64,000 nucleotides of DNA from Escherichia coli (GTDB lineage: Bacteria; Pseudomonadota; Gammaproteobacteria; Enterobacterales; Enterobacteriaceae): assembly GCF_013122565.1 (NCBI RefSeq), contig NZ_CP053258.1, one strand, 5' to 3'. A program made the position numbers and the translations under genes. This document shows positions 8,965-9,384 of this stretch, piece by piece. A model generated the notes under the pieces. The model was not told the DNA's origin and made no database searches. It saw only the letters and a program-made list of their open reading frames with translations. Every line of letters begins with the position of its first letter. The first letter of the stretch is position 1.

Positions 8965-9074
8965 TTCAGGCTTGTGTGTAAAGATTGATTATTGAGCGCA
9001 AATTGCTGGTATTTTGCGCTTTACTGTTCCGATAAGTTCAGTATGATCTTGCCCGGAAAACGGGGAGAGTCATT

Positions 9075-9185
9075 ATGCTGGAATCAATAATTAATCTGGT
9101 ATCGAGTGGCGCAGTTGACAGCCACACACCGCAAACTGCTGTTGCTGCCGTGCTGTGTGCCGCGATGATTGGGCTGTTTAGTTGA
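9075..9185 (+). CDS. yshB: Small protein YshB (36 aa)
   Basis: ATG with ggggagag RBS; MLESIINLVSSGAVDSHTPQTAVAAVLCAAMIGLFS, position between glnG and hemN. Confidence 0.6.
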   Translation: MLESIINLVSSGAVDSHTPQTAVAAVLCAAMIGLFS

Positions 9186-9189
9186 AGCT

Positions 9190-9300
9190 CGTTGTTTATG
9201 CCGGATGCGGAGAAAGTCGTAGGCCTGATAAGACGCGACCAGCGTCGCATCAGGCATCATCCTCAGATGCCGGATGCGGCGTAAACGCCTTATCCGGCCT
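9190..9300. repeat. REP/BIME repeat cluster
   Basis: gccggatgcgg...gcctgataagacgcg...cgtcgcatcaggc...gccggatgcggcgtaaacgccttatccggcctac. Confidence 0.8.
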
Positions 9301-9384
9301 ACAAAAGCAATAATTTCAACAGGTTTTGTTGACCAGCGCATCAGGCAACCTTGTTCTCAGCACATTGATAGCGCCATTCACTAT

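Follow-up and report, generated by a model that had tools for sequence, protein, structure and literature searches.

Several membrane proteins of fewer than 50 residues, each with a single hydrophobic helix and a small transcription unit of its own, are known to modulate a larger partner; the characterised pairs include MgrB with PhoQ, CydX with cytochrome bd, and Blr with the divisome. YshB has the same size, the same single helix and likewise its own unit. Its gene, yshB, lies at 9075-9185 in the stretch of Escherichia coli DNA considered here, 64,000 nucleotides (nt) of contig NZ_CP053258.1 (assembly GCF_013122565.1). The whole of this stretch is called the window; all coordinates are positions in it, and yshB is on its plus strand. 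Behavior as a substrate of RseP is also common to YshB, Blr, MgrB and CydX (PMC10470546). YshB has no sequence relationship to the other three, however, and its helix differs from theirs in having no flanking Lys or Arg.

The nearest systems by descent are the orthologues. The K-12 MG1655 counterpart, b4686 (YP_002791260.1), likewise lies between glnG and hemN and is identical to that of the window in protein sequence and position; the coding sequences (CDS) differ at 3 sites, all synonymous. The K-12 3' flank has a 29-nt hairpin next to hemN that the window lacks. The Salmonella orthologue, found at the same locus, is 86-94% identical and has the same HTPQTA...C core. There only 50-60 nt separate yshB from hemN, and this interval contains one palindrome resembling a Salmonella-type repetitive extragenic palindrome (REP). 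Salmonella YshB has a reported virulence phenotype, while none is known for E. coli. According to passages of PMC10470546 and PMC9731577 that cite Bomjan 2019 (J Bacteriol 201:e00314-19), the Salmonella homologue promotes intracellular replication and virulence.

The segment 9075-9185 is yshB, a known, conserved and translated small-protein gene of Enterobacterales. A sequence-only reading of the window had proposed an open reading frame (ORF) of 36 codons with a strong Shine-Dalgarno (SD) sequence, named it yshB and placed it between glnG and hemN, all of which holds. The ORF starts with the ATG at 9075 and has 36 sense codons followed by TGA at 9183-9185; its translation is MLESIINLVSSGAVDSHTPQTAVAAVLCAAMIGLFS. 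The SD sequence, GGGGAGAG, occupies 9062-9069 (+), with its GGAG core (9064-9067) 7 nt from the ATG. The name is confirmed by the NCBIfam hidden Markov model NF033841, "YshB family small membrane protein", an equivalog model with a cutoff of 34 bits that scores 72.1 bits (E = 2.4e-20, residues 1-36 on profile positions 1-40), and by RefSeq, which annotates the ORF as yshB (WP_000893994.1) under the same product name, as well as by K-12 b4686. Upstream, glnG ends at 8964, and yshB starts 110 nt further downstream. On the other side hemN, on the minus strand and convergent with yshB, has its stop at 9385-9387, 199 nt from the yshB end. Pfam has no family for the protein.

Under-annotation, which had been suspected for small proteins of this kind, does not apply to yshB, which is annotated in essentially every complete E. 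coli genome. For example, the block 9020-9185 (promoter and CDS) occurs once, at full length and with at least 95% identity, in 5,425 of the 5,426 complete E. coli genomes surveyed, and a yshB annotation is present under every listed match. The finding is correct but already known, the gene being in RefSeq with a dedicated NCBIfam model; its description dates from 2008. Discovery value is small, since the gene is catalogued and the REPs that follow it are a textbook E. coli repeat. Taking the parts together, it is very probable that yshB is a translated, self-contained unit, that its product is anchored in the membrane, and that an ordinary bacterial interspersed mosaic element (BIME) made of REPs lies downstream, most likely as a two-way barrier.

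YshB can be considered a narrow family, because an exhaustive phmmer search of 1.84 billion representative proteins gave only 15 relatives, many of them frameshifted or extended variants. A scan with the family alignment against one genome per species found 58 loci, 57 of which are complete. In the Enterobacteriaceae these occur in Escherichia, Salmonella, Citrobacter, Klebsiella, Enterobacter, Kosakonia, Pluralibacter, Trabulsiella, Phytobacter and Leclercia. Outside that family the gene is found in Erwinia and Izhakiella (Erwiniaceae), Brenneria (Pectobacteriaceae) and Serratia (Yersiniaceae). All 57 complete loci, from four families, keep an ATG-initiated ORF of 35-41 codons and a G-rich SD sequence, and in every one the SD sequence is the same distance from the ATG. 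Insertions and deletions among the orthologues are whole codons (multiples of three).

Substitutions in yshB follow the pattern expected when purifying selection acts on a protein. The alignment of 46 distinct 36-codon orthologues has 19 variable columns at first, 11 at second and 34 at third codon positions, so that the third position varies in 34 of the 36 codons. The pooled ratio of nonsynonymous to synonymous polymorphism (pN/pS) is 0.18, the mean ratio of nonsynonymous to synonymous substitution rates (dN/dS) is 0.10, and mean dS is about 1. Synonymous sites are therefore near saturation, which leaves little room for constraint at the RNA level inside the CDS. The yshB genes of the window and of E. 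albertii have synonymous differences only. By itself the length of 36 codons is unremarkable (67 ORFs of at least 20 amino acids overlap 7000-11500), so the case for the gene rests on conservation and on published protein evidence.

Two longer ORFs on the minus strand, 9038..9250 (70 amino acids) and 9084..9341 (85 amino acids), were considered as genes and rejected as spurious, as they run through REP sequence. Since other genera lack REP sequence of this type here, neither frame is conserved as an ORF. The range 9038-9341, which the sequence-only reading had assigned to yshB together with its repeats, turns out to be the union of these two frames.

The protein itself lacks both Lys and Arg and has a single His and two acidic residues. 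Over residues 21-35 its Kyte-Doolittle hydropathy averages 2.37. An AlphaFold2 model based on the family alignment has helices at residues 2-13 and 17-35 (mean predicted local distance difference test score 75.8). The N-terminal helix is predicted to be short and amphipathic and the C-terminal one to be a hydrophobic helix of 19 residues; model and hydropathy are both compatible with membrane residence. The residues M1, H17, T18, P19, Q20, T21, A22, A25 and C28 are invariant over 29 distinct family sequences, and the C-terminal helix opens with the invariant HTPQTA. A role of H17 and C28 as ligands of heme or a metal would be pure speculation. As read from the sequence, A22, A25, C28 and A29 fall on one face of that helix; a small-residue face of this kind usually mediates helix-helix packing and may do so here. 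The invariant HTPQTA..A..C face may be a dedicated interface for one inner-membrane partner. The Protein Data Bank holds no solved structure with a YshB relative.

Published work provides direct evidence for the protein and runs counter to a lack of translation from 9075, which the sequence-only reading had named as its refutation. Intact YshB has been detected by top-down proteomics (PMC12529367). Passages of PMC7549839 and PMC10502375 that cite the ribosome profiling of Li et al. 2014 give its number in a stationary-phase cell as more than 11,000 copies. With an N-terminal tag, YshB behaved as a class I substrate of RseP both in three in vivo assays and when the enzyme was purified (PMC10470546). 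The proposed scheme is that the C-terminal helix would anchor YshB in the inner membrane with its N-terminus in the cytoplasm. An N-inside orientation is what RseP generally requires of its substrates. There YshB, in the manner of MgrB, CydX and Blr, would pack against a larger protein of the membrane, and RseP would turn YshB over and so limit its level. The remark that such proteins are often regulatory is sound for the small-protein class; as a claim on YshB it goes too far.

Several observations weigh against this combined picture of gene, product and 3' flank. The hydrophobic segment, rich in Ala, is short, and the 19-residue window has a mean hydropathy of only 1.53. The evidence on RseP was obtained with constructs tagged at the N-terminus (PMC10470546), and tags can alter topology. 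C-terminally His-tagged YshB was undetectable (PMC7549839), and one study lists YshB apart from "small membrane proteins" (PMC12529367). The NC_000913 record labels the product "uncharacterized protein". Finally, the REP cluster is polymorphic among strains and is possibly neutral for the most part. YshB is abundant, conserved over four Enterobacterales families and linked to virulence in Salmonella. The HTPQTA..A..C core, the lack of Lys and Arg, and an invariant promoter (below) provide handles for mutagenesis and partner searches.

REPs, imperfect palindromes of about 35 nt, were recognized here by the head GCC(G/T)GATGCG and the tail CTTATC(C/A)GGCCTAC. Convergent gene pairs flank about 60% of the REPs in E. 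coli, and a role as dual terminators and stabilisers has been proposed for these (preprint 10.64898/2026.03.23.713779). Like other E. coli BIMEs, the cluster that follows yshB consists of inverted Y and Z palindromic units with a short linker and is extragenic, between convergent genes. Its REP material falls within 9198-9347, and the core of 105 nt (9198-9302) agrees with the earlier estimate of about 110 nt of repeats. The same reading had yshB "embedded" in the cluster, which is not the case. The REPs lie between the yshB and hemN stop codons and on the 3' side of yshB only.

Reading from yshB, the first element is a truncated Y-type REP head at 9200-9210 (+), GCCGGATGCGG, which is the left copy of a 13-nt direct repeat flanking a 69-nt BIME expansion. 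It starts 14 nt past the yshB stop; the first complete REP starts 33 nt past it. That complete unit is a Z-type REP of 37 nt at 9219-9255 (-), an exact match to the REP consensus; no shuffled sequence matched the pattern. A linker of 13 nt (9256-9268) without integration host factor (IHF) consensus separates it from a Y-type REP of 34 nt at 9269-9302 (+), identified by a match to the tail motif. Y and Z units in opposite orientation, 13 nt apart, form a mosaic element. The cluster ends with a Z-type remnant at about 9328-9347 (-), from which about 10 nt of the tail half have been deleted; strains MS1657 and Xuzhou21, like E. albertii, have this REP whole. The Z/Y pair with its two truncated units is an ordinary BIME. 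BIME-1 elements have an IHF-type site in the linker, whereas the IHF consensus WATCAANNNNTTR has no match in 9180-9350 (its only match in the window is at 46905), and the cluster is accordingly not a BIME-1.

Both copy number and folding are those of such elements. The window contains 9 copies of the REP tail motif CTTATCMGGCCTAC, where 0.01 would be expected, and a 551-nt query of the region finds a median of 26 places per E. coli genome, as for a dispersed, multi-copy sequence. As RNA, 9180-9350 folds with -72.5 kcal/mol (z = -6.0). In the minimum free energy (MFE) fold 9199-9209 pairs with 9337-9347 in the distal Z remnant and closes the whole domain. A scan of 8850-9450 found no canonical intrinsic terminator (GC-rich stem-loop with T-run).

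The gap between yshB and hemN varies among genera. Most of them have 29-100 nt there; the range for Escherichia is 139-607 nt, with 199 nt in the window. One GC-rich palindrome, which looks like a bidirectional terminator, fills this interval in the REP-less genera Klebsiella, Trabulsiella, Pluralibacter, Phytobacter and Serratia. A canonical terminator hairpin is found 3' of yshB in the Serratia, Klebsiella and Brenneria orthologues. Salmonella, Citrobacter, Enterobacter and Kosakonia carry REP types of their own. In a form like that of the window, the cluster is largely confined to Escherichia.

Strains also differ. In the compared E. coli and Escherichia strains the interval 9186-9384 has at least five alleles, with gaps of 137-232 nt and differences that include apparent REP-to-REP deletions. 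The YshB protein (WP_000893994.1) is identical in the E. coli strains checked despite these alleles. The O157 and E. albertii allele has one intact Y and one Z unit. Compared with it, the window and K-12 have the 69-nt expansion flanked by the 13-nt direct repeat ATGCCGGATGCGG and have lost about 10 nt of the distal Z. The window has a further change at 9377/9378, just downstream of the hemN stop, where a 29-nt segment completing the hairpin GGCGCTTTCGTTTTCTACTTTGTAAACGAAGCGCC is deleted. This segment is present in other E. coli, K-12 and O157 among them, and in E. albertii and E. whittamii; the hairpin is probably the ancestral, terminator-like one at the hemN end of the gap. Only 3 of the 5,426 complete E. 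coli genomes (UTME-7, 6EVA and wlxctx60) share the junction of the deletion. In Escherichia sp. MOD1-EC7003 (L004:2611-3222) the gap reaches 607 nt and contains a duplicated hemN 3'-end fragment and repeated REP blocks, which suggests a REP-associated segmental duplication.

A sequence of events that would account for the cluster begins with REPs colonising the convergent yshB/hemN gap in Escherichia. Transcribed from either side, the cluster would form stable hairpins and act as a two-way transcription barrier and protector of 3' ends, a role that falls to one terminator hairpin where a genus has no REPs in this gap. With no canonical terminator and with the 29-nt hairpin on the hemN side deleted, the REP hairpins are the only strong structures left to stop or protect the convergent transcripts. 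Most likely the BIME is, at most, such a hairpin barrier between yshB and hemN transcripts. As a clean natural example of REPs in place of a simple bidirectional terminator, the locus offers several alleles in which the effect of REPs on convergent genes can be compared.

A serious rival to the barrier is that the REP cluster is selfish or neutral DNA in a permissive convergent gap, with no meaningful effect on yshB or hemN expression. The configurations of the cluster, at least five against an identical YshB in the E. coli strains checked, are what this would predict, as are the allele with a 69-nt expansion between 13-nt direct repeats and the presence in other genera of unrelated REP types or none. 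Terminal REPs also do not lengthen mRNA half-lives genome-wide, but the same study finds that convergent pairs with REPs are expressed higher than pairs without (preprint 10.64898/2026.03.23.713779). The window strain moreover has no canonical intrinsic terminator between the genes, and with the hemN-side hairpin gone the REP hairpins (-72.5 kcal/mol) are its sole strong structures. Neutrality is possible but doubtful on this evidence.

A different effect would arise if REP structure near the stop codon stalled terminating ribosomes and lowered YshB synthesis. The truncated Y head at 14 nt falls within the 15-nt stop-codon rule of Liang et al. 2015, as quoted in a passage of PMC12306157, and the long-range helix that it forms in the MFE fold would close the domain there. 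That helix is only predicted, however, and the first complete REP hairpin, 33 nt past the stop, is outside the 15-nt window, so stalling is possible but unlikely. The abundance of YshB, as reported in a passage of PMC7549839, also speaks against it.

The REP pair could, in a third reading, be a functional nucleoid-associated RNA gene like naRNA4, whose product binds HU and condenses the chromosome. The Rfam family RF02564 (naRNA4; gathering score 59.5 bits) matches 9222-9299 with 82.3 bits on the minus strand and 52.9 bits on the plus strand; the Y-type REP supplies the first hairpin of the match and the Z-type REP the second. The minus strand would be transcribed through hemN read-through, and HU binding and nucleoid effects have been reported for naRNA4 (PMC4550694). 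RF02564 is in effect the Y-linker-Z unit of a BIME, however, and any such BIME scores, e.g., that at 35074-35151. The linker here differs from the model consensus, and the cluster has one Y-Z unit and two truncated ones, compared with the six-unit tandem array of REP325 (PMC4550694). Even for REP325/naRNA4 no measurable nucleoid compaction was found, and a local role as a terminator/stabiliser in the 3' untranslated region (UTR) was reported instead (preprint 10.64898/2026.03.23.713779). Such a function is very improbable for the yshB cluster.

The strain-variable REP cluster may serve as a non-coding dosage dial for YshB. In this strain, with its rare 29-nt deletion, hemN read-through would be stopped only by the BIME and could give antisense interference with yshB. 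The hemN gene is induced anaerobically. If this induction and the antisense reading are both true, the YshB level would be coupled to oxygen in a strain-specific manner. The conjunction of a partner interface at HTPQTA..A..C, a REP dosage dial and an antisense coupling to hemN that depends on the deletion is improbable as a whole.

Two other REP-related sites are present in the window. A second BIME unit at 35074-35151 (-) matches RF02564 with 93.5 bits and is accompanied by REP tail motifs at 35042, 35071 and 35141. Between glnA and glnL, where the K-12 annotation places the small RNA (sRNA) GlnZ, there is a Y-type REP tail motif at 6300-6313 (+).

Upstream of the ORF, yshB has a promoter of the sigma-70 type at 9020-9047 (+), with TTTACT and TATGAT separated by 16 nt. 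This is the sole promoter-like site found by the scan in 8850-9450, and a promoter of its own has been reported for yshB (PMC9731577). In 41 aligned orthologous upstream regions, which include those of Serratia, Erwinia and Brenneria, CTTTAC and GTA..AT are invariant even in the most distant genera, and the orthologues follow the pattern TTTAC-N17-GTATKAT. Where a locus includes upstream sequence, yshB nearly always begins 100-116 nt after glnG. The Brenneria gene also comes after glnG and has kept this promoter together with a canonical terminator, but its downstream neighbor is not hemN. The almost constant spacing and the Brenneria arrangement indicate that yshB is an autonomous unit tied to the glnG 3' side and not to hemN. 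A functional link between YshB and HemN, for which synteny would speak, is weakened by the Brenneria case.

A short transcription unit directly after glnG is also the position of the sRNA NrsZ in Pseudomonas (PMC9731577). That the ORF is a chance frame and the conserved element an NrsZ-like non-coding RNA downstream of ntrBC, or a dual-function RNA with a dominant base-pairing role, could draw on this position, on the frequency of short ORFs by chance and on the strongly structured 3' flank, but it is largely refuted already, and most improbable, given the protein pattern of substitution (dN/dS 0.10-0.18, third-position variation in 34 of 36 codons), a dS of about 1 that leaves little RNA-level constraint within the CDS, the start codon, SD sequence and frame kept in 57 loci with indels in multiples of three, the detection of the protein by mass spectrometry (PMC12529367) and a REP-derived family as the sole Rfam match.

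Two potential hairpins precede yshB. An inverted repeat, GAGCGCAAA-N10-TTTGCGCTT, occupies 8994-9021 (+), downstream of the glnG stop, and runs 2 nt into the -35 hexamer of yshB. It forms a 9-bp stem in the MFE fold, and different genera have conserved its sequence. It was not picked up as a terminator by the scan, and covariation is absent, with 83.3% of cells able to pair versus 82.5% in shuffles. It could be a weak glnALG terminator hairpin, an operator, or both. Closer to the gene, just upstream of the SD sequence and overlapping its G-run, there is a GC stem-loop, CCCG-GAAAA-CGGG, at 9052-9064 (+). Most of the 47 distinct orthologous 5' regions compared are likewise predicted to form a stem here, with covariation not significant against shuffles. 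Depending on the transcription start, the element would be a hairpin of the 5' UTR or a GC-rich discriminator. Since covariation does not go beyond shuffles, neither 8994-9021 nor 9052-9064 is asserted as an RNA structure.

Different genera have kept the length and the sequence of the 110-nt spacer between glnG and yshB (8965-9074) to an unusual degree, as seen for GTGTAAAGATTGATAATTGAGCGCAAATTGC and for the inverted repeat GCGCAAA-N10-TTTGCGC beside the -35 hexamer. Such conservation hints at a regulator-binding site or a dual terminator/promoter arrangement.

Elsewhere in the window, known RNA families are found. Rfam matches above the gathering score identify ES222 sRNA, CsrC, Spot 42 and Erse sRNA at 4508-4615, 11514-11767, 12796-12914 and 42296-42547, respectively, all on the minus strand. 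A complete rRNA operon occupies 22002-27094 (-) and comprises 16S, two tRNAs, 23S and 5S; a match to StyR-44 at 25123-25222 falls in its 16S-23S spacer region.

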